Below are positions 54,777-64,000 of a stretch of 64,000 bases of DNA, piece by piece. Under the pieces are notes generated by a model. That model did no database searches, was not told where the DNA came from, and was given only the letters and a program-made list of their open reading frames with translations. Position numbers and translations under genes: made by a program. This stretch comes from Gemmatimonadaceae bacterium. Its GTDB lineage: Bacteria; Gemmatimonadota; Gemmatimonadetes; Gemmatimonadales; Gemmatimonadaceae. Location: contig JBJMOW010000004.1 of NCBI GenBank assembly GCA_045803545.1, positions 480,001 through 544,000 on the forward strand. Direction: 5' to 3'. Within the stretch, counting starts at the first letter, position 1. Every line of letters begins with the position of its first letter.

Positions 54777-56288
54777 ATGGCAGAGCGAGTACGAACGCGC
54801 TTTTTGGTAGTGGGTAGTGGCGTTGCCGGGCTTCACACCGCCTGGCGCGCTTCGACTGGTGGCGACGTCGTGGTGCTGACAAAACGCTCGCTCTTCGACA
54901 GCGCTACAGCGTACGCGCAGGGCGGAATCGCCGCCGCACTCGGCGCTGGAGACTCGCCCGAGCTGCATCGTCAGGATACTCTGGCGGCCGGTGCGGCGCT
55001 CTGTGACTCGAAGGCCGTCGAAGTTCTGGTTGAAGAAGGACCGGCGCGCGTGCGGGAGCTGGCGACAGCCGGCGCCCACTTCGACCTCGAGCCCGGCGGC
55101 AACTTCAAGCTTGGCCGTGAAGCCGCACACTCGCGTCGTCGCATCGTTCATGCGCACGGCGATCAGACCGGCGCCGAGGTGGCGCGCACTCTGATCAAGC
55201 GCGTCAAGGAGAGCGACGACATCGAGGTATACGAGAAGACTCGCATTCTCGAACTCATCGTCGAGGGTGATGCAGTTGCTGGCGTGCGCGCGGCGGTCGC
55301 GGGGAAGCCAGTCGAATTCATTGCAGACGCCACCGTGCTCGCAACCGGTGGCTGTGGTCAGGTATTCCGCTACACCACCAATCCGCAGGTTGCTACCGGT
55401 GACGGATTCGCGATCGCGCATCGCGCGGGCGTGAAGCTCGCCGACATGGAGTTCGTACAGTTCCATCCGACGGCTCTCGACACTCCTGAGAATCCGCTGC
55501 AGCTAATCTCCGAGGCAGTACGTGGCGAAGGTGCGATTCTGATCAACGACGAAGGAAAGCGCTTCATGCTCGAGAAGCACCGCCTCGCCGAGCTTGCACC
55601 GCGGGACGTTGTCGCGCGCGAAATCTTCCGGGAGAAGATCGGTGGAAAGCATGTCTGGCTGGACGCGCGCTCACTCGGAAAGAACTTCGAGCAGCGCTTT
55701 CCGGGAATCTTCGCCATCTGCAGGGCGCGCGGCGTAAATCCGTCGACAGATCTGATCCCGGTCACCCCCGCAGCGCATTACATGATGGGCGGTATCGTCA
55801 CTGACCTGCGTGGGCGCGCGAGTCTGAATCGGTTGTATGCAGCGGGTGAGGTGTCTCGCACGGGCGTGCACGGCGCGAACAGACTGGCGTCGAACTCTTT
55901 GCTGGAAGGCCTGGTGTTCGCCGAGCGTGTGGCGCGTGACATGATCGATTGCCCGACGCTTCAGGCATCCCCACGCAAGAAAAAATGGGAAGTGCCGGTG
56001 CTGCGTGATCGCGGAGCGGCGCAGGTCGCCGCCGACAGCATCCGCCAGGTGATGTGGGACCACTGCGGCATCGATCGCAGCGCGAAGGGACTAAGGTTGG
56101 GGCTGACCAAGCTTCAGGAAATCGAATCGCGGCTGCCGACGGGCGCGACCGAAGAAGCCAACATGGTGCAGACCGCTCGGCTCATTGCCGAAGCCGCCCT
56201 GTTGAGAAAGGAGTCGCGGGGCGGCCATTATAGAAGTGATTTCCCGCGCGCCAAAAGGAAGTGGAGCGGCAAGCACATCGAATGGTAG
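54777..56288 (+). CDS. nadB: L-aspartate oxidase
   Basis: GSGVAG, AQGGIAA, EAAHSRRRIVH, QFHPT, GVHGANRLASNSLLE, ESRGGH; adjacent to nadA and nadC. Confidence 0.95.
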   Translation: MAERVRTRFLVVGSGVAGLHTAWRASTGGDVVVLTKRSLFDSATAYAQGGIAAALGAGDSPELHRQDTLAAGAALCDSKAVEVLVEEGPARVRELATAGAHFDLEPGGNFKLGREAAHSRRRIVHAHGDQTGAEVARTLIKRVKESDDIEVYEKTRILELIVEGDAVAGVRAAVAGKPVEFIADATVLATGGCGQVFRYTTNPQVATGDGFAIAHRAGVKLADMEFVQFHPTALDTPENPLQLISEAVRGEGAILINDEGKRFMLEKHRLAELAPRDVVAREIFREKIGGKHVWLDARSLGKNFEQRFPGIFAICRARGVNPSTDLIPVTPAAHYMMGGIVTDLRGRASLNRLYAAGEVSRTGVHGANRLASNSLLEGLVFAERVARDMIDCPTLQASPRKKKWEVPVLRDRGAAQVAADSIRQVMWDHCGIDRSAKGLRLGLTKLQEIESRLPTGATEEANMVQTARLIAEAALLRKESRGGHYRSDFPRAKRKWSGKHIEW

Positions 56289-57298
56289 ATACCACGGACA
56301 AGCTGTACAAAGAACTGCAGGAAGAGATCAAGCACCTCGCGCGCGCGAGAAACGCGGTCATCCTGGCGCACAACTACGAGCGCGCGGAGGTGCAGGATGT
56401 CGCCGACTTTGTCGGCGACTCGCTGGGGCTGAGCCGCGAAGCCGCAAAGACAGAAGCCGATGTCATCGTGTTCTGTGGCGTACACTTCATGGCAGAAACC
56501 GCCGCGGTGTTGTCTCCGCAGAAGACAGTTCTTCTGCCCGATCTTGCTGCCGGCTGTTCGCTTGCAGCGACGATCGATGGTGATCAGCTGCGGCAGTGGA
56601 AGTCTGAGCATCCCGGTGCAGTCGTCGTTTCTTATGTCAACACGACTGCTGACGTGAAAGCGGAGAGTGATTATTGCTGCACGTCCGGCAACGCGGTGGA
56701 AGTCGTGAACTCCATTCCTGCCAATCAGGAGGTCCTCTTTCTTCCTGACATGTTCCTCGGCGCGCACGTGAGACGCATCACAGGCCGCAAGAACATGCAC
56801 GTGTGGATGGGTGAGTGTCACGTTCACGCTGGGATCGATCCGGAGGACATTCGGTTGCAGCGCGCCGAGCATCCGGGCGCGGAGTTTCTGATTCATCCGG
56901 AGTGCGGCTGCGCGACGAGCGTGGTGGAGGCGGTGTCGGCCGGCGACGTGGATCCGGTTGGGGTTCAGATCCTGTCGACCGAAGGGATGATCAAGCGACC
57001 GAAGATATCGACAAATGACGAGTTCATCGTCGCCACAGAGGTCGGGATTCTGCACCGGCTGCGCCGTGAGAATCCGACCAAGAAATTCCATCCGGCAAAT
57101 CGTGAGGCGGTCTGCGCGTTCATGAAGGTGACGACGCTGCCTAAAGTATTGAGATCGCTGCAGCGGATGGAGCATCGGATCACTGTGCCGGAGGATATCG
57201 CCAATCGGGCGCGCGGAGCGATCGAGCGCATGATCGCGATTGGTGGACAGACGCCGCTCTCGCCGGTTCCAGAGGCGTCGGACGACCCGGGCGAATGA
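56282..57298 (+). CDS. nadA: Quinolinate synthase
   Basis: LAHNY, GDSL, CGVHFMAET, GCSLA, CHVH, HPEC; start at ATG 56282. Confidence 0.95.
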   Translation: MVDTTDKLYKELQEEIKHLARARNAVILAHNYERAEVQDVADFVGDSLGLSREAAKTEADVIVFCGVHFMAETAAVLSPQKTVLLPDLAAGCSLAATIDGDQLRQWKSEHPGAVVVSYVNTTADVKAESDYCCTSGNAVEVVNSIPANQEVLFLPDMFLGAHVRRITGRKNMHVWMGECHVHAGIDPEDIRLQRAEHPGAEFLIHPECGCATSVVEAVSAGDVDPVGVQILSTEGMIKRPKISTNDEFIVATEVGILHRLRRENPTKKFHPANREAVCAFMKVTTLPKVLRSLQRMEHRITVPEDIANRARGAIERMIAIGGQTPLSPVPEASDDPGE

Positions 57299-58197
57299 CC
57301 ATTCATCGTGACAAGGAGTTAGCCAAGCACGGATTCTTCTGGGAAGAAGGGCTTCACTTCCCCTTGACCAAAAAAGAGCTGACTAAGCTCGTAGCGCAGG
57401 CGCTGCAGGAAGACGACACCAAGCACGACATAACGACGGCGGCGACGGTGTTGTCGAATCGCCGAGCCCGGTGTCGGCTGGTGTCGCGACCGAGCGGAGT
57501 GATATCGGGTCTGCCGTTGGCAATAGAGGCGTTCGAGCAGCTGGACCCCGCGGTGACGGTGCGAGTAGACCATCCGGATGGGTCGCGGATCCCGGCGCAG
57601 ACGCCGGTGATGTTTCTGTCAGGGCACGCACGCGCGTTGCTATCGGCCGAGCGTGTAGCCCTCAACTTCGTGCAGAAGCTGTCGGGGATTGCGACGATGA
57701 CTGCGCGTTATGTCGACGCCGTAGCCGGCACCGGCGCGTACATTCTCGACACGCGCAAGACGACGCCGTTGTATCGTCACCTCGAGAAGTATGCAGTTCG
57801 CTGCGGCGGCGGATTGAACCACCGCATGGACCTGGCGTCTTCGGTATTGATCAAGGACAATCACCTGGCGACGGTGGAATACGACATTTTACTGGCAGTC
57901 CGACGCGCGAGAGCGCTGGCGCCGGCGGGGGTGAAGGTCGAAGTGGAGTGTGAGACGCTCGATCACGTTCGGGCAGCGCTCGATGCCGGCGTCGACGTGA
58001 TCATGTTCGACAACATGCAGCTGGTTGAGCTGCGCGAGGCGGTAAAGCTCGTAAATCGCCAGGCGGTCACGGAGGCGTCGGGCGGTGTCACACTGGATAC
58101 TGTGCGGCTGATTGCGGAGACTGGTGTCGACTGGATCTCGATTGGGGCACTGACGCACTCTTCGCCGGCTTTGAATGTCGGGTTGGACTTCGATTAG
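57295..58197 (+). CDS. nadC: Quinolinate phosphoribosyltransferase
   Basis: DITT, ERVALNF, DTRKTTP, LIKDNH, EVECE, EASGG, GALTHS. Confidence 0.96.
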   Translation: MTIHRDKELAKHGFFWEEGLHFPLTKKELTKLVAQALQEDDTKHDITTAATVLSNRRARCRLVSRPSGVISGLPLAIEAFEQLDPAVTVRVDHPDGSRIPAQTPVMFLSGHARALLSAERVALNFVQKLSGIATMTARYVDAVAGTGAYILDTRKTTPLYRHLEKYAVRCGGGLNHRMDLASSVLIKDNHLATVEYDILLAVRRARALAPAGVKVEVECETLDHVRAALDAGVDVIMFDNMQLVELREAVKLVNRQAVTEASGGVTLDTVRLIAETGVDWISIGALTHSSPALNVGLDFD

Positions 58198-58313
58198 GGC
58201 TGCGGACTAACAAACGGTAGGCGTCGCAGAAAGAACTCATAAGGACAGTTGGCAGCGTAGGAATGAAGGCTGAGAGTTTCATCTACCACGCCCACCCAGT
58301 GGAGTGAACGACA

Positions 58314-59951
58314 ATGGATCGTAGGGATTTCTTGCGGCTTAGCGCGGTCGGCGCTGCGCTCGGAGTCGGCGGCGTGCCGCTCGTCGGTGAACAATCTCGG
58401 TTTGGCTCGAGAACCGGCGAAGCGACGGGTTTCAACATCGCCGCGTTCGAGCTGGAAGAGGCGACGCTTGACGATCTGCAGAAGTGGATGGCGTCGGGGA
58501 GGATGACGTCGCGATCGATCACTCAGCTCTACCTGAATCGCATCGCGGCTCTGGATCGCAAAGGTCCGTCGCTCCACCACGTGATCGAGGTCAATCCCGA
58601 TGCGTTGTCGATTGCGGCATCGCTCGACCGCGAGCGTAAAGCGGGTCATGTGCGCGGGCCGCTGCACGGGATACCGGTTCTGGTCAAGGACAACGTCGAC
58701 ACCGCGGATCGGATGACGACGACAGCGGGATCACTGGCGCTGGCGGGCTCCATTCCTCTGCAGGATTCGACAGTTGCGGCGAAGCTCCGCGCAGCTGGCG
58801 TAGTGCTGCTCGGCAAAACGAACCTCAGCGAGTGGGCTAACTTCCGTTCGTCGCACTCGACCAGCGGATGGAGCGGTCGCGGCGGTCAGGCGAAGAATCC
58901 CTATGTGCTCGATCGCAATCCCTGCGGCTCGAGCTCTGGATCCGGGGGAGCCGTTTCCGCAAATCTCTGTGCAGTTGCAATCGGCACCGAGACCGATGGG
59001 TCGATCGTTTGTCCCTCGTCGACGAATGGGATCGTCGGTATCAAGCCCACTTTGGGGCTGGCCAGTCGGGCCGGAGTGATACCAATTGCCCACAGCCAGG
59101 ACACCGCCGGCCCGATGGCGAGAACGGTGCGCGATGCCGCGATTTTGTTGAACGCAATTGCCGGCGTCGACGCGCGCGACCCGGCAACTTCGGCACTGAG
59201 CGCGCGCCAGCCGGTTGACTACACCCGCTCGCTCGACGCGAATGGCCTCCGCGGCGCGAGAATTGGTGTGGCGCGCACCAAGTTCTTTGGCTACAGCGAC
59301 GTCACCGACAAAGTCATCAACGACGCAATCGATCTGATGAAGCGACAGGGCGCGGTGATCGTCGACCCGGCGAACATTGAGACCGCAGGGAAGTTCGATG
59401 ACAGCGAGTTCGACGTCCTGCTCTACGAGTTCAAGGCGGATCTGAACAACTATCTCGCGTCACTTGGCCCAAAAGCGCCGGTGAAATCGCTACAGGATAT
59501 CATTGCGTTCAACGAGGCGCACAAGGACCAGGAGATGCCCTGGTTCGGACAGGAGATCATGATCCAGGCGCAGGCGAAGGGACCGCTAACCGAGCAGAAG
59601 TACATCGACGAGCTGGCGCAGGATCTCAAGATGTCGCGCACCGATGGTATCGATGCGACTATGACCAAGTACAATCTCGATGCGATCGTCGCGCCGACCG
59701 GTGGGCCGGCGTGGGTGACGGATCTGGTCAACGGCGATCACTTCAGCGGCGCTAGCTCGACACCCGCGGCGGTGGCGGGTTATCCCAACATCAATGTCCC
59801 GGCAGGATTCTCACACGAACTGCCGATCGGGATTTCGTTTTTTGGGAGAGCGTGGAGTGAGCCGACGTTAATTCGGCTCGCTTATGCGTTTGAGCAGGCG
59901 AGCAGACATCGTCGAGCGCCAAAGTTCATTCCTACACTAGGGATATCGTAG
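58314..59951 (+). CDS. Amidase-signature family enzyme with Tat signal peptide
   Basis: DRRDFLR twin-arginine motif, GPLHGIPVLVKD, GSSSGS, GTETDGSI. Confidence 0.92.
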   Translation: MDRRDFLRLSAVGAALGVGGVPLVGEQSRFGSRTGEATGFNIAAFELEEATLDDLQKWMASGRMTSRSITQLYLNRIAALDRKGPSLHHVIEVNPDALSIAASLDRERKAGHVRGPLHGIPVLVKDNVDTADRMTTTAGSLALAGSIPLQDSTVAAKLRAAGVVLLGKTNLSEWANFRSSHSTSGWSGRGGQAKNPYVLDRNPCGSSSGSGGAVSANLCAVAIGTETDGSIVCPSSTNGIVGIKPTLGLASRAGVIPIAHSQDTAGPMARTVRDAAILLNAIAGVDARDPATSALSARQPVDYTRSLDANGLRGARIGVARTKFFGYSDVTDKVINDAIDLMKRQGAVIVDPANIETAGKFDDSEFDVLLYEFKADLNNYLASLGPKAPVKSLQDIIAFNEAHKDQEMPWFGQEIMIQAQAKGPLTEQKYIDELAQDLKMSRTDGIDATMTKYNLDAIVAPTGGPAWVTDLVNGDHFSGASSTPAAVAGYPNINVPAGFSHELPIGISFFGRAWSEPTLIRLAYAFEQASRHRRAPKFIPTLGIS

Positions 59952-59954
59952 GAT

Positions 59955-60074
59955 GAGTCCGAGTTGCGAGCTGAGTCCGAGATGCGAACCTAGTCCGAGG
60001 TACGAGCCAACTACGAGCGTCGCTCGCAACTCGTAATAGGCTCGGTCTTCGGACTTAGATCGTAACTCGGACTC
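59955..60074. repeat. Imperfect palindromic element built from 18-bp units
   Basis: Three direct units (GAGTCCGAGTTGCGAGCT-like), a central hairpin and two inverted units. Confidence 0.8.
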
Positions 60075-60092
60075 GATCTACTCCCAGATCAA

Positions 60093-60941
60093 CTAACGCG
60101 TCGCCGCCTGTACGATACTCGCGGCCAACACCTTGCCCGCTTTGGACAGCGTGTATTGCACTATGGCATTCGTCGCGGCATCGCGCGCGCGTTTGACGAG
60201 ATTGCCGGCGGCATCGGTGGCCTGACTAAGCACTGGTAGCTGAGTGATGTTGCCGACGACTTTCTCGGCGGCGTTCTGGCCGGCGGCGGTGACTGCCTTC
60301 TCGAGAATGTTACCGGTGGCGGGATCGATCAGGCGCTGAACGCCATTGACGGTTCCCATCAGCAATCGATTCACCAGTCCACCGACGGCACCAACGGTGT
60401 TCTGCAACGTGCTGCCGAGTTGCTGCACGATCTCGGGATGGTTGTCGAGGAAAGTCAGCGTGTTATCGACGATGTAGTAGACGTCGTCGAGATCGACGAG
60501 CAGCAGAGCCTGCGCGCGCACACCCTGAATTGTCAGATCGACATTGCCGATCAGAACGTCGGCGCCCGCATCGACGCGCACGAGATTGGCGACCCGCGCG
60601 TTGAGATTGAGCTTCGCCGTCACGCTATCGACTTTGAGAAAGATTCTCTGGACACAGAGATTCGGAATGTCGAGCACCACGTCGTATTCCGGATACTCGT
60701 GTGAGCGCCCAGTTCCACCGGTGACCTGCGCAGCGCCGGCAACGCCGCCCGCGGCTCGCTGCGCAGCGAGACTGTCAACACGTAATCCTCTATTGAACGC
60801 GCGCGCGGAGTCGGTCGGCTGACACTGCCATGGTTGTCCGGCGCCTGGTCGCGTCGCAGTTCGCTGTTGCGCGAAAGTGATCGACGGGGCCAGTGCTGCT
60901 ACTGTCAGCACTGAGGTGACGACACGCGTGGTGGTGCGCAT
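60093..60941 (-). CDS. Secreted hypothetical protein A (long beta-hairpin module plus C-terminal domain)
   Basis: GAGG RBS and signal peptide ending TFA-Q; paralogous to 62202-62663. Confidence 0.85.
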   Translation of the reverse strand: MRTTTRVVTSVLTVAALAPSITFAQQRTATRPGAGQPWQCQPTDSARAFNRGLRVDSLAAQRAAGGVAGAAQVTGGTGRSHEYPEYDVVLDIPNLCVQRIFLKVDSVTAKLNLNARVANLVRVDAGADVLIGNVDLTIQGVRAQALLLVDLDDVYYIVDNTLTFLDNHPEIVQQLGSTLQNTVGAVGGLVNRLLMGTVNGVQRLIDPATGNILEKAVTAAGQNAAEKVVGNITQLPVLSQATDAAGNLVKRARDAATNAIVQYTLSKAGKVLAASIVQAATR

Positions 60942-61012
60942 ATGCAGATCCTCTGGACGGAACGACGCCGGACTCGTCTCACATCACAACCCGACTAACG
61001 TCGAATGCGAAT

Positions 61013-61053
61013 TGCAAAAAGCTCGCCCGACCGGTGTAAGGCACGGATGTTGA
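61013..61053. promoter_or_regulatory. Back-to-back sigma54-like elements
   Basis: Minus strand GGGCGAGCTTTTTGCA (61028-61013, GG-N10-GC); plus strand AGGCACGGATGTTGA (61039-61053, GG-N10-GA). Confidence 0.45.
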
Positions 61054-61082
61054 ACTCCGTGACTCCGTTCCTGGGGAGCATC

Positions 61083-61688
61083 ATGCGCAGAAAGTCAAAA
61101 ATGTACACAGCGCTGGTCTGGGGAACGTCGCTCGTGGCGATGTCACCCGCCTTGGTACGCGCGCAGGTCGCGGCTAGTGATGCGAACAACCAGACGTGCG
61201 CGGCACTGCTGTCGAACGACGGCAGTGTCGGCGCGCGAGTCGGGCCCGGGCTCACCGACACCGCATCGCGGCGCGATACTACGACCCGCGCTCGAGCGGA
61301 TAGCGCATCGTTTGGCATTGGCGGCGCCCGTACAGGCACAACCAATCCGACAGTGCATCTCCTCGTCGGTGTTCAGGCGGACCAGGTCACATTCGCCAAA
61401 CAACCGCAGGTGCGAGTGCGGCTTTGCTGGGGCGGCGACACGCTGAGAGTAGTGCAGCGAACGAATCTCCCGTCGCCAGTGGTCGCCGGTACTACCTATA
61501 GAAACGTATACGTCGCGGTCGAGTTGATCGGCCGATTGAACGGCCAGTGCCTATCGGACGCGATTGGCGTTGGCAATCAGCAAACGCAACCACGTGCGGG
61601 CGCCGCGCCGACATCAGCTGCCAATTGCGCGTTCCTCGGCGGGAATGCGAGCGCCGGTCAGGGAAGTCCGAGACCGCCAGTCCCATGA
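61083..61688 (+). CDS. Secreted hypothetical protein B (beta-rich, 4 Cys)
   Basis: GGGGAG RBS before ATG 61083, signal peptide ending VRA-Q, motif RTNLPSPVVAGTTYRNV. Confidence 0.8.
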   Translation: MRRKSKMYTALVWGTSLVAMSPALVRAQVAASDANNQTCAALLSNDGSVGARVGPGLTDTASRRDTTTRARADSASFGIGGARTGTTNPTVHLLVGVQADQVTFAKQPQVRVRLCWGGDTLRVVQRTNLPSPVVAGTTYRNVYVAVELIGRLNGQCLSDAIGVGNQQTQPRAGAAPTSAANCAFLGGNASAGQGSPRPPVP

Positions 61689-62185
61689 TCAGTCATCATT
61701 GCTCGATCACTGGCGCAGCGATGTTTGTGCTGAGCTCGGTTGCGATCGGACAAACGCCGCCGCGACCGACTCCGATTCCAAATCAGGTCCCACCGCGATC
61801 ACTCACTGCACAGGGCGCGCTTTCGGACTCGACGGCCGGAACGGCCGCGGGCTGCCCGGGCGGGAACGGCATTCACATCTCGACAACTGGCGGGACTGGA
61901 ACCGACTCATCCTCGGGAACGAATCAATTCATAGGGCTCGGGCAGTCGGTCGACACGACCTGGGTCTTCAATATTCAGCAGCGAACCTGGACGCGCACCA
62001 ATCTTGCGGCTGCGCTGAGTGTCGGACTCGCAGATGAAACGCGCGGACGATACGCGATATGTGCGGGAGTGACGGCGATAATGCCGAGTGCAACGCTGAC
62101 ACTTCGAGGTGCGCGCGGTCGTGTGCACTTCGCGGCATCACTCAAACAACTGAGCGATGCTCTTCGGTTAGGTCCGGGGCGATGA
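61685..62185 (+). CDS. Secreted hypothetical protein C (divergent beta-hairpin module)
   Basis: ATGA overlap with gene B, signal-like N-terminus ending AIG-Q, C-terminal half aligns with A and D. Confidence 0.75.
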   Translation: MISHHCSITGAAMFVLSSVAIGQTPPRPTPIPNQVPPRSLTAQGALSDSTAGTAAGCPGGNGIHISTTGGTGTDSSSGTNQFIGLGQSVDTTWVFNIQQRTWTRTNLAAALSVGLADETRGRYAICAGVTAIMPSATLTLRGARGRVHFAASLKQLSDALRLGPGR

Positions 62186-62201
62186 GCCTTCAACCTGGGA
62201 G

Positions 62202-62663
62202 ATGGTGACGATGCGTGGTGGAATCCTGATTACCGGACTCTTTCTCTGTGCCGCCGCAGTGCCGGCGTTTGCACAACAGCCAACCGGACAGCGCACGTTC
62301 ACCAGTAACGCGCAGGTAACTCCGAATCGCGATGTGATCCTCGAGATTCCGGAACTGTCGGTCGATTCGATCGGCCTGACGGTTTCCGATGTACGCGCTC
62401 ACGTCGCGCTCGACGCCAACGCGATGAACCTCGTCCAGTTGACGGCAGGCGTCGATGTCGGGATCAAGAAGGTGCAGCTCGGCATCGTCGGTGTGATGGC
62501 GGAGGCTTACCTCTACGTCGACCTCGATAACGTCGCCAGGATCGTGAACCGCGTTGTGCAGACCCTCGACCGGAATCCGCAGATTCTGATTCAGGTGCTC
62601 AAGACTGTTGATACCGCGGTCAATTCGATTACGGGACAGCCGGGACAGCCGCCGCGGCCGTAA
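62202..62663 (+). CDS. Secreted hypothetical protein D (minimal beta-hairpin module)
   Basis: Signal peptide ending AFA-Q; 42/91 ungapped identities to protein A by hand count. Confidence 0.85.
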   Translation: MVTMRGGILITGLFLCAAAVPAFAQQPTGQRTFTSNAQVTPNRDVILEIPELSVDSIGLTVSDVRAHVALDANAMNLVQLTAGVDVGIKKVQLGIVGVMAEAYLYVDLDNVARIVNRVVQTLDRNPQILIQVLKTVDTAVNSITGQPGQPPRP

Positions 62664-62690
62664 CGGCACTGCGAACTGATAACTGCAACC

Positions 62691-62831
62691 AAAGGTAGGG
62701 AGTCAGCAGAGAGCTCAGGCCAGAGTTGGCAGCTACGATCCTGGCGATCCAGGCGCAACGCGCTTCGAATGCGCGTAACAACGCCGCGAACTGAGTTCTG
62801 AGCTCTCTGCATTCTGCCTACCTTTTTTTTT
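62691..62831 (+). terminator. Long branched stem-loop with T9 tail
   Basis: AAAGGTAGG/CCTACCTTT and GCAGAGAGCTCAG/CTGAGCTCTCTGC stems enclose two small hairpins. Confidence 0.6.
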
Positions 62832-62842
62832 CGTCCTCAGTT

Positions 62843-64000
62843 CTACTCGTCGAGAATAGAGTCGGTAACGAAGTACCCATTCGCAGCCCGTACCGACTCC
62901 GCAACCGCGCGCCGGGTATCGTCGACCTCCTCTTCGCGAGAGTCGAGCATTCCGCGGTTAGTCCGGAATCGCCGCCCCCCCTCGACGCAGAACAAATCCG
63001 CTAAGGCAATCTCGCGGTCGCACATCTCGACACCGCGCTCATCGATCAAACTCTGGGTGCGCGCGATGACTGCGGCCGTGGCGAAAAGATCGATCGCCAT
63101 GTTCGCCAGCCGTTCGAGCACGAACTGGCTCTCGACGATTTTCTCGCGGTGGCGAATGATCACGCGATCGGTTGCCGCGCCCAGCTCGGCGACGTGCTTC
63201 TGGAAGTACTCCTTGTTCTTCTTGAGCCGGTCGTGGACATCGATGTCAAGCGTGGATGTCTGCCCCAGCCGCAGTCGCACGCGTGAGGTCGCATACCCAC
63301 CGAGCATACCGAGATTGCGCAGCGGGCGGCGAAGCGCTGAGCCGACTTCCTTCAACGCCTGCGCTGGCGCCTGCACTCCGTTGAGCGCGATGAAGAGGCG
63401 CAGCACTTCGTTCGCCCCCTCGAAGATGCGATTGATGCGGGAGTCGCGCAGCGCGCGCTCGTAGGGATACGGTTTGACGTAACCGCGGCCCCCGGCGAGC
63501 TGCACCATGTCGTCCGCTGCGCGCCACACCAGATCACTGGCGAACACTTTCGCGCAAGCAGCCTCGAGGGAAAAGTCGGCCTCGCCACGATCGACCAGGG
63601 ACGCGAGTATCCCGAGCATCGCGTCAGCTGCGTAGGTCTCACTCGCCATTTGGGCGAGCTTGCGCTGCGTAATCTCGAAATCGGCAAGCGGATGACCAAA
63701 CTGCACCCGCTCTTCAGCGTAAGTCGTCATCCGCTTCACTGTCGCCTTTGTCGCTCCGGTACAGCCCGCGGCAAGAGTCAGTCGCCCCGCGTTTAACACG
63801 TGTACAGCGACGCCGAAACCGCGGCCAACCGCGCCGAGCAAATGATCCGCGGGCACCTCGAGCCCCTCGTAAGCGAGCTCGGCCTGGGTCGACCCGCGAA
63901 TGCCCAGTTTGTGGACAGTGCCGACGACACGAAAGCCAGGCATGTCCGGACGGATAATGAAAGCGGTCATGCGCGGCACATCCTCTCCGCGACGGCGGAC
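62843..64000 (-). CDS. Acyl-CoA dehydrogenase (long, VLCAD/ACAD9-like), 5' end outside the window
   Basis: KLGIRGS, LNAGRL, RVQFG, QLAGGRGY, RDSRINRIFEGANEVLR and a C-terminal extension. Confidence 0.93.
   Translation of the reverse strand, partial: VRRRGEDVPRMTAFIIRPDMPGFRVVGTVHKLGIRGSTQAELAYEGLEVPADHLLGAVGRGFGVAVHVLNAGRLTLAAGCTGATKATVKRMTTYAEERVQFGHPLADFEITQRKLAQMASETYAADAMLGILASLVDRGEADFSLEAACAKVFASDLVWRAADDMVQLAGGRGYVKPYPYERALRDSRINRIFEGANEVLRLFIALNGVQAPAQALKEVGSALRRPLRNLGMLGGYATSRVRLRLGQTSTLDIDVHDRLKKNKEYFQKHVAELGAATDRVIIRHREKIVESQFVLERLANMAIDLFATAAVIARTQSLIDERGVEMCDREIALADLFCVEGGRRFRTNRGMLDSREEEVDDTRRAVAESVRAANGYFVTDSILDE

Follow-up and report, generated by a model that had tools for sequence, protein, structure and literature searches.

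A divergent cluster of four genes, here called A to D, occupies positions 60093 to 62663 of a 64,000-nt stretch of a Gemmatimonadaceae bacterium genome (assembly GCA_045803545.1, contig JBJMOW010000004.1, positions 480,001 to 544,000 of the forward strand; hereafter the window). The cluster encodes three protein families, namely B, C and a hairpin-helix module carried by both A and D, which recur together in other bacterial phyla as an operon of constant gene order. These co-occurring families lie outside every known system tested, whether compared by sequence, by fold or by gene set. A–D may build a non-enzymatic, self-assembling structure of the cell envelope, a function that we propose tentatively. 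The genes and the module they share are as follows.

60093..60941, minus strand: gene A, 282 aa; open reading frame (ORF) with signal peptide, linker with Cys40, module and C-terminal extension
60372..60683, minus strand: hairpin-helix module in A (residues 87 to about 190), from BLASTP of A against D
61083..61688, plus strand: gene B, 201 aa; the ORF opens at 61005 and the start is internal
61685..62185, plus strand: gene C, 166 aa; ATGA overlap with the stop codon of B
62211..62663, plus strand: gene D, 150 aa, signal peptide and module only; the ORF opens at 62202
62331..62639, plus strand: hairpin-helix module in D, from BLASTP against A, the AlphaFold2 model and column statistics

The association of B, C and the module became apparent from a one-genome-per-species scan with a 12-row module alignment, in which 456 of 558 candidate stretches were confirmed and the best 80 loci analysed by iterative profile searches for the three families over all ORFs. 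These loci belong mostly to Pyrinomonadaceae and Blastocatellia, the rest to two cyanobacteria, a metagenome-assembled genome labelled Clostridia, Deinococcus hohokamensis, Sphingomonas lenta, Allosphingosinicella and Streptomyces. Members of the B family were found in 73 and members of the C family in 76 of the 80 loci; 71 loci, all from phyla other than that of the window, contained both together with the module, and in every one of them the order was B-C-module on one strand. Coupled translation of B and C is suggested by a 4-nt overlap of the two genes in 43 of 73 pairs. The module protein of the operon loci is of the A type, about 300 aa long and with a C-terminal extension, and a solo module was seen in four loci (Deinococcus, Sphingomonas, Allosphingosinicella and Streptomyces). 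At one locus (L016, 3685-4611), a single ORF matched both the B and the C families, representing either a natural B-C fusion or a long-read indel error.

Flanking genes differ between phyla, so that only the B-C-module triad is constant. In the window, the cluster lies between amidase and acyl-CoA dehydrogenase genes; in cyanobacteria, the triad lies between zwf-opcA and a cobyrinate-diamide-synthase-like gene; and in about 45 acidobacterial loci (e.g. L013, 425-7094) it is preceded by an FHA-GGDEF diguanylate cyclase gene and followed, in the same direction, by PilN-like, GspM-like (sub-threshold), TIG / choice-of-anchor-Z repeat and pseudopilin-like genes. The acidobacterial flanks may represent a link to export or regulation specific to that lineage, or simple synteny. 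Altogether, the three families occur in three or more bacterial phyla, and the module extends to fungi. The system is patchy everywhere we looked: a strong match was present in 17 of 121 sampled genomes of the acidobacterial order, and in Gemmatimonadota the cluster is rare, with the module in 1 of 200 other genomes across the phylum. That single genome (L100, G137:C12:33000-41000) carries two A-type copies on opposite strands with a short-chain dehydrogenase gene between them and a B-like gene upstream; a C homologue was not detected at this locus.

A and D are the only two module copies in the host genome (3.7 Mb, 6 contigs). Within the genus, 3 of 24 other genomes encode the module, always as an A-like and a D-like pair, and tblastn recovered all four genes in each of the three. 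Two of these relatives share the arrangement of the window, i.e. amidase, A (minus), B, C and D (plus) and acyl-CoA dehydrogenase (minus), whereas in the third, which has the same genes on either side, B-C points away from A and D, themselves placed next to each other. The persistence of all four genes despite this rearrangement, together with the operon found in other phyla, agrees with the view of an initial sequence-only reading of this DNA (the first-pass annotation) that they form a functional unit. We also compared the variable segment between nadC and the acyl-CoA dehydrogenase gene (window 56261-59951) with cluster-free relatives of the genus (L096-L099). In three of these, nadC abuts the acyl-CoA dehydrogenase gene at a distance of 43-795 nt, with neither amidase nor cluster genes, and in one the amidase gene is followed by unrelated Ada-like and GNAT-like ORFs. 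As the locus differs in this way between genomes, we consider the cluster an accessory unit.

In line with the initial impression that no motif could be assigned to the four proteins, A–D gave no significant match to any family in Pfam, NCBIfam, PHROGs or PADLOC; Pfam remained empty at E<=1, and PHROGs and PADLOC returned no family at E<=0.1. Nor did these four libraries reveal a catalytic family or motif in any of the proteins searched. Searches against PDB chains were likewise without significant result: D alone reached LexA at best (E 0.09), the A2 profile a tape measure protein (E 0.0056) and amphipathic-helix proteins (E 0.15-0.6), the C profile a single chain (E 0.54) and the B profile none. 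At the level of structure, the D model had no Foldseek match in the PDB at E<=0.001 (best E 0.24, TM-score 0.14) and a best Z of 4.3, on helices only, in a wide VIA search; the B model (Foldseek best E 0.48, wide VIA best Z 3.4) had no fold match either. Neither sequence libraries nor Foldseek thus yielded a confident match to a characterized family or fold. A full-text literature search found no publication on the module family, a thin basis for calling it unpublished.

A and D are 42% identical over 129 aa (BLASTP, E 3e-22), and the 42 identities counted earlier by hand in an ungapped stretch of 91 residues were reproduced exactly. By sequence, the two are paralogues with a common module of ~105 aa. 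D has 1060 homologues and A has 794 at E<=1e-3; the closest ones are found in Gemmatimonadaceae records and on many contigs of soil metagenomes, the best for A being 78-98% identical and from Gemmatimonadaceae records. Overall, the module family comprises 1020 clusters (50% identity) at E<=1e-3 and 659 at E<=1e-10 (phmmer, 1.84 billion representatives), and the matched stretch of ~105 aa occurs in proteins of 66 to 1146 aa. Fungal members include a protein of Borealophlyctis nickersoniae with 51% identity to a metagenomic member and, more weakly, proteins of Mycena species; the mention in the first-pass annotation of similar proteins in actinobacteria and fungi was hence accurate for both groups. 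The ESM Atlas offered unnamed clusters only for D and no usable named cluster for A. Three D homologues (P0044, P0066 and P0085) bear the JGI label 'transcriptional accessory protein Tex/SPT6', which is probably an annotation artefact as the sequence gives it no support.

The AlphaFold2 model of D, built from a 150-row alignment, consists of two strands (residues 45-74 and 78-106) followed by two helices (109-124 and 127-143), with a mean pLDDT of 76.8, block pLDDT values of 71-94 over residues 41-150 and a pTM of 0.40. It agrees with the two strands of ~30 residues and following helix that had been read from the sequence, adds a second helix, and describes a long hairpin rather than a compact globule; fully extended, the hairpin would measure about 100 Å. 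Column statistics fit the modeled register, in that cross-strand partners with i+j=152 are both hydrophobic. The same statistics qualify the earlier description of the hairpin as one-sided: at two polar doublets (55/56 opposite 96/97, and 62/63 opposite 89/90) both strands shift in register, and the hydrophobic face hence changes side at two points. The helices are amphipathic.

Columns conserved at >=90% are D44, V45, L47, P50, V54, L59, V61, A66, L70, A72, G83, V91, L93, G97, V98, A100, L104, L108, N125 and P126. At individual positions, identity is close to complete (A66 in 141/147, L70 in 143/148, A72 in 138/148, G83 in 146/146 and A100 in 139/147 sequences). Near-invariant, Ala-rich hydrophobic positions of this kind would be expected of a protein-protein interface and not of a lipid-facing surface, which bears on a possible role of the hairpin as an oligomeric β-barrel channel or pore. 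Here, the distal 11-12 residue pairs of the hairpin (64-74 and 78-88), with their hydrophobic tip, would insert as a multi-subunit barrel, as in CsgG, MspA and β-pore-forming toxins. Strict alternation over a membrane-spanning length and a charged opposite face (R65, H67, D/Q71, E/R73, K79, D85) are compatible with such a wall, and a self-made outer-membrane channel would explain why the triad comes without a transporter gene. Moreover, the only Foldseek neighbors of the module are stems of aerolysin, lysenin, CDTb and α-hemolysin in the pore state (E 0.24-1.4, TM-scores 0.11-0.19), but these matches are not significant and reflect long-hairpin geometry alone. Since, in addition, an aromatic girdle is lacking, the putative lipid-facing positions are small, near-invariant alanines, the hydrophobic side changes twice along the proximal half of the hairpin, unlike in a barrel wall, and the cytoplasmic-looking actinobacterial members misfit an outer-membrane role, we consider a pore improbable.

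C probably represents a shortened hairpin-helix relative of the module, as indicated by profile comparison. Behind its signal peptide and linker lies a conserved core of about 85 aa, which aligns with the module from the second half of strand 1 through the turn and strand 2 into the beginning of the helix (hhalign probability 57%, E 1.1e-4, 68 columns outside the signal peptide). A hidden Markov model of the C family also matched 79 of 84 module ORFs at E<=1e-3, a score that signal peptides inflate. B, in turn, combines a signal peptide, a disordered linker, a conserved core of ~75 aa and a Pro-rich tail, and hhalign detected no relation of B to the module or to C beyond signal peptides. AlphaFold2 predicts strands at 91-103, 120-127 and 138-150 and a helix at 154-161 (block pLDDT 64-94); in this model, the conserved region of B is an open sheet of three strands that encloses no core of its own. 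The B and C families rest on alignments of 49 (A3) and 57 (A4) sequences, respectively. Co-folding of B (85-168), C (80-166) and D (40-150) with alignments gave a score of 0.02 against a mark of 0.32, a result that counts neither way on binding.

All four proteins are probably exported, as far as their N-termini allow a judgment. Each starts with a basic or neutral stretch, followed by a hydrophobic stretch and a junction of small residues and Gln (…TFA/QQ in A, …VRA/QV in B, …AIG/QT in C and …AFA/QQ in D, the slash marking the junction), so that inspection upheld the initial call of Sec-type signal peptides ending before Gln. An Ala-Gln junction shows >=90% conservation among the aligned B sequences and forms the consensus of the C alignment. 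A crude signal test, applied to the longest possible starts, was positive for 72 of 79 C, 50 of 76 B and 61 of 84 module ORFs. Cysteines lie at positions 40 and 96 of A, 39, 115, 156 and 182 of B, and 57 and 126 of C (as well as 6, in the signal peptide), while the single cysteine of D (13) is in its signal peptide. Given these positions, mature A, B and C have even numbers of cysteines (two, four and two) and mature D has none. Even counts are compatible with the disulfides suggested earlier for A, B and C; however, homologues in other phyla mostly lack these cysteines, and pairing would be a lineage-specific rather than a general feature.

The module itself also occurs in proteins of a different kind. 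Of 150 aligned module sequences, a crude hydrophobicity test recognized a signal-like N-terminus in 50; the other 100 lack one, among them at least 11 that are short fragments or have few residues before the module. Many signal-less members, including named Actinomycetospora and Streptomyces proteins, display acidic disordered N-termini, Gly/Ala-rich repeats and basic tails. Occurrence both with and without signal peptides is what a generic surface binder could show, and hairpin and helices might stabilize a hydrophobic surface (a membrane leaflet, a lipid body or the air-water interface), e.g. during drying, in the manner of apolipoproteins, late embryogenesis abundant (LEA) proteins, phasins or GvpA instead of forming a free-standing fibre. 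Named carriers are soil or dry-habitat genera (Deinococcus, Sphingomonas, Streptomyces, Crinalium, Pyrinomonadaceae). Among 30 longer relatives, Pfam gave sub-threshold matches to apolipoprotein, senescence, chlorosome CsmC and RHS families and one RHS_repeat match above cut-off; in actinobacterial extensions, the sub-threshold E-values were 3.8e-5 to 2.4e-3 for Apolipoprotein, 7e-5 for Senescence and 1.7e-3 for CsmC, and the A2 profile weakly matched apolipophorin-III, ApoA-I and α-synuclein in the PDB (E 0.3-0.5). These amphipathic-repeat matches are singly not significant and fall far below curated cut-offs (about 23 vs. 90 bits); for Apolipoprotein (PF01442), 18-24 bits against a cut-off of 90 were reached in 4 of the 30 relatives and never in A–D. 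As A and D lack such helical repeats, a near-invariant hydrophobic face would be unusual for lipid contact, and the conserved need for B and C would go unexplained, we regard a surface coat as an unlikely function of the cluster.

The C-terminal extension of A comprises about 90 aa of YD/RHS-like hairpin repeats and aligns with a matching unit in its relatives. One of these, P0255, passes the Pfam RHS_repeat model (PF05593; 26.8 bits vs. a cut-off of 22), P0268 (16.8 bits) and P0269 (12.1 bits) fall below it, and three relatives are named 'YD repeat-containing protein' by JGI. Relatives of 525-1146 aa carry several copies of the YD-like unit that is present once in A, the long ones four to five, a repetition typical of fibrous proteins. 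Two of the longest, P0266 (1146 aa) and P0269 (1048 aa), consist of an N-terminal region of ~250-320 aa, the module, Gly/Ala/Thr-rich 17-mers and four to five YD-like units. By eye only, the N-terminal region of both resembled an outer-membrane β-barrel; Pfam was empty there, for the N-terminal 248 aa of P0266 even at E<=10.

Repeats of this type might also belong to a surface adhesin or binding protein, in which the module serves as stalk or oligomerization stem, the YD-like repeats bind polysaccharide, mineral or another cell, and B and C act as helpers. The multi-unit relatives and the RHS_repeat match of P0255 fit such an architecture, as do the diguanylate cyclase and type II secretion / type IV pilus-like neighbors of the acidobacterial loci, but the latter are limited to one lineage and A itself stays under every RHS model threshold in Pfam and NCBIfam. 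With D devoid of any extension and the module being the conserved part, we judge a binding function very unlikely to be what the cluster encodes.

We return to a self-assembling envelope structure as the explanation that we tentatively favor. Mutual burial of β-sheets best explains the combination of a long hairpin, conserved hydrophobic faces, an open-sheeted partner (B) and a shorter paralogue (C) in a set of proteins that are probably exported and co-translated; the lack of an enzyme signature and the existence of multi-repeat, fibrous relatives point to assembly as well. According to this model, the ancestral unit would have been a three-gene operon encoding B, C and a single module protein that ends in a YD-like extension. 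The module gene would have been duplicated in the present lineage, giving rise to A, which kept its full length and is now divergently transcribed, and to D, which consists of the module alone. As the single module gene found at the position of D in other lineages is of the A type, D is more likely the lineage-specific duplicate that lacks the extension. After export via Sec, the conserved, Ala/Leu/Val-rich hydrophobic faces of the hairpins would become buried in contacts among the hairpins and with B and C, through sheet-to-sheet packing and edge-strand pairing. The product would be a homo- or hetero-oligomeric β-sheet assembly (a fibre, sheet or ring) in the periplasm or on the envelope, with C acting as nucleator, cap or adaptor and B as assembly partner.

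Export, oligomerization, location and the roles of A–D are what we infer from these features, and parts of the division of labor put forward in the first-pass annotation need revision. D as the major subunit is doubtful, given that the A-type protein is the universal form outside Gemmatimonadota. C had been assigned a minor or cap subunit; a cap is still among its proposed roles, whereas its probable kinship to the module (hhalign, hidden Markov model) speaks against it being just a minor subunit. Several observations weigh against assembly. The pTM of the D monomer model is no higher than 0.40, the B model is confident in its core alone, and cleavage of the signal peptides was assessed by inspection and with a crude script. 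With roughly 100 of 150 representatives lacking a signal-like N-terminus, the module is not tied to the envelope, and as most supporting loci come from one acidobacterial lineage, they are not independent. Moreover, neither an outer-membrane transporter nor an usher or sortase-like partner, which could deliver a polymer to the cell exterior, accompanies the triad in the best 80 loci and their annotated flanks.

A broader proposal, which we put forward as a speculation and regard as doubtful, is that the module is a new and widespread self-assembly fold, used in the actinobacterial cytoplasm, in the bacterial envelope (as B-C-module) and among the secreted proteins of fungi. In combination with B and C, it would form a new kind of β-ribbon polymer or lattice of the diderm envelope, which may aid survival in dry soil. 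Because the module also occurs in actinobacteria and fungi, it can be tested in tractable organisms.

The features surrounding the four genes are the following.

59955..60075, strand not assigned: long imperfect palindrome (inverted repeat) between the convergent amidase gene and A
60942..61082, strand not assigned: divergent intergenic region between A and B, by gene geometry; promoters are presumed here
62690..62835, plus strand: structured hairpin, then nine T, in the interval separating D from the acyl-CoA dehydrogenase gene; likely terminator of B-C-D

The strands given for the four ORFs in the first-pass annotation (A minus; B, C and D plus) and their coordinates were all recovered, and the likely starts of the cluster genes were placed inside the longest ORFs. 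The B start (61083) is preceded by GGGGAG and the D start (62211) by GGGAG, the ATG of C (61685) overlaps the TGA of B, and the ESM Atlas record of D opens at the same Met. The assigned starts also match the N-termini of orthologues in the B and C family alignments. A promoter scan of the intergenic region between A and B found no σ70-like consensus. RNA-library contigs from four soil runs hold exact pieces of A, B and D and cross the start of A, reaching 60973-60983. Transcription, strand and level cannot be read from these contigs, and uncovered parts carry no meaning; the contigs are compatible with transcription of the cluster, not proof of it. Long antisense ORFs lie opposite A (60420-60704, plus) and D (62190-62669, minus) and were treated as non-coding, as they are expected in DNA of about 60% G+C.

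Both elements that bracket the cluster were correctly recognized as structured beforehand, as they fold far better than shuffled sequences: 59955-60075 at -73.8 kcal/mol (z -7.8) and 62690-62835 at -75.5 kcal/mol (z -5.2), the latter followed by U9. Neither matches an Rfam family; a scan of 59800-62950 gave only a chance miRNA match (E 0.35). The left element, about 120 nt long, has 12 further matches (72-91% identical) in at least seven other places of the genome. As a copy of a dispersed repeat it is neither cluster-specific nor part of the system; it is a palindromic element similar to repetitive extragenic palindromes (REP) or miniature inverted-repeat transposable elements (MITE). The right element is likely the terminator of B-C-D, although larger than an ordinary intrinsic terminator.

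Among known systems, the tapA-sipW-tasA operon of Bacillus subtilis, which encodes a Sec-exported major subunit and an accessory, nucleating protein and builds biofilm fibres by β-strand complementation, resembles the cluster as a small operon of Sec-exported proteins. The cluster differs from it in having no signal peptidase gene, in its diderm hosts and in the lack of detectable sequence or fold similarity (Pfam, PDB, Foldseek, VIA). Curli (CsgA/CsgB) and Pseudomonas Fap encode paralogous major and minor subunits together, assemble into non-enzymatic β-sheets and employ an outer-membrane channel, CsgG or FapF. Paralogues encoded together and a proposed β-sheet assembly are also found here, but no CsgG/FapF-type channel appears among the cluster proteins or annotated neighbors, and each unit consists of one very long hairpin with helices instead of imperfect Q/N-rich repeats. 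The endospore appendages of Bacillus (Ena; ena1A/B/C) likewise have three genes for small, β-rich structural proteins; the weak VIA matches of the B core (8pdz, Z 2.7; 7a02, Z 2.4; 9t3p, Z 2.2) are all at noise level, DUF3992 is not matched and the context is not that of spores. Chaperone-usher and type IV pilins gave no family matches and the N-termini of A–D are of the ordinary Sec type, the pilus-like neighbors being sub-threshold and confined to one acidobacterial lineage. Anti-phage defence and phage structural proteins can be set aside as well, with A–D unmatched in PADLOC and PHROGs.

Closer in shape is GvpA, an amphipathic β-hairpin flanked by a helix that builds a large wall in the cytoplasm and has small paralogues nearby, as does the module. 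However, the GvpA hairpin is much shorter, the cluster proteins have signal peptides, no gvp-like neighbors are present in the annotated flanks, and the Pfam Gas_vesicle family is matched neither by A–D (E<=1) nor by the 30 long relatives (E<=0.01). The stems of β-pore-forming toxins (aerolysin, 9fm6; lysenin, 5ec5; α-hemolysin, 3anz) are long, two-stranded amphipathic hairpins too, yet similarity is confined to E >=0.24 and TM-scores of 0.11-0.15; the module has no cap or receptor domain, and its Ala-rich, twice-switching hairpin departs from the strict whole-length alternation and variable lipid-facing side of such stems. Bactofilins, finally, polymerize through a β-helical core with disordered charged tails, reminiscent of the acidic N-termini and basic C-termini of actinobacterial module members, but the module has no Pfam match to them and is predicted to form a hairpin with helices, not a β-helix. 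With its two partner families, the module forms a conserved operon in abundant soil phyla (Acidobacteriota, Gemmatimonadota and some cyanobacteria). Should the products of this operon assemble in the envelope, they would offer a handle on the envelope biology of poorly cultured soil bacteria, and a very long amphipathic β-ribbon with helices would constitute a new building principle among bacterial extracytoplasmic polymers.

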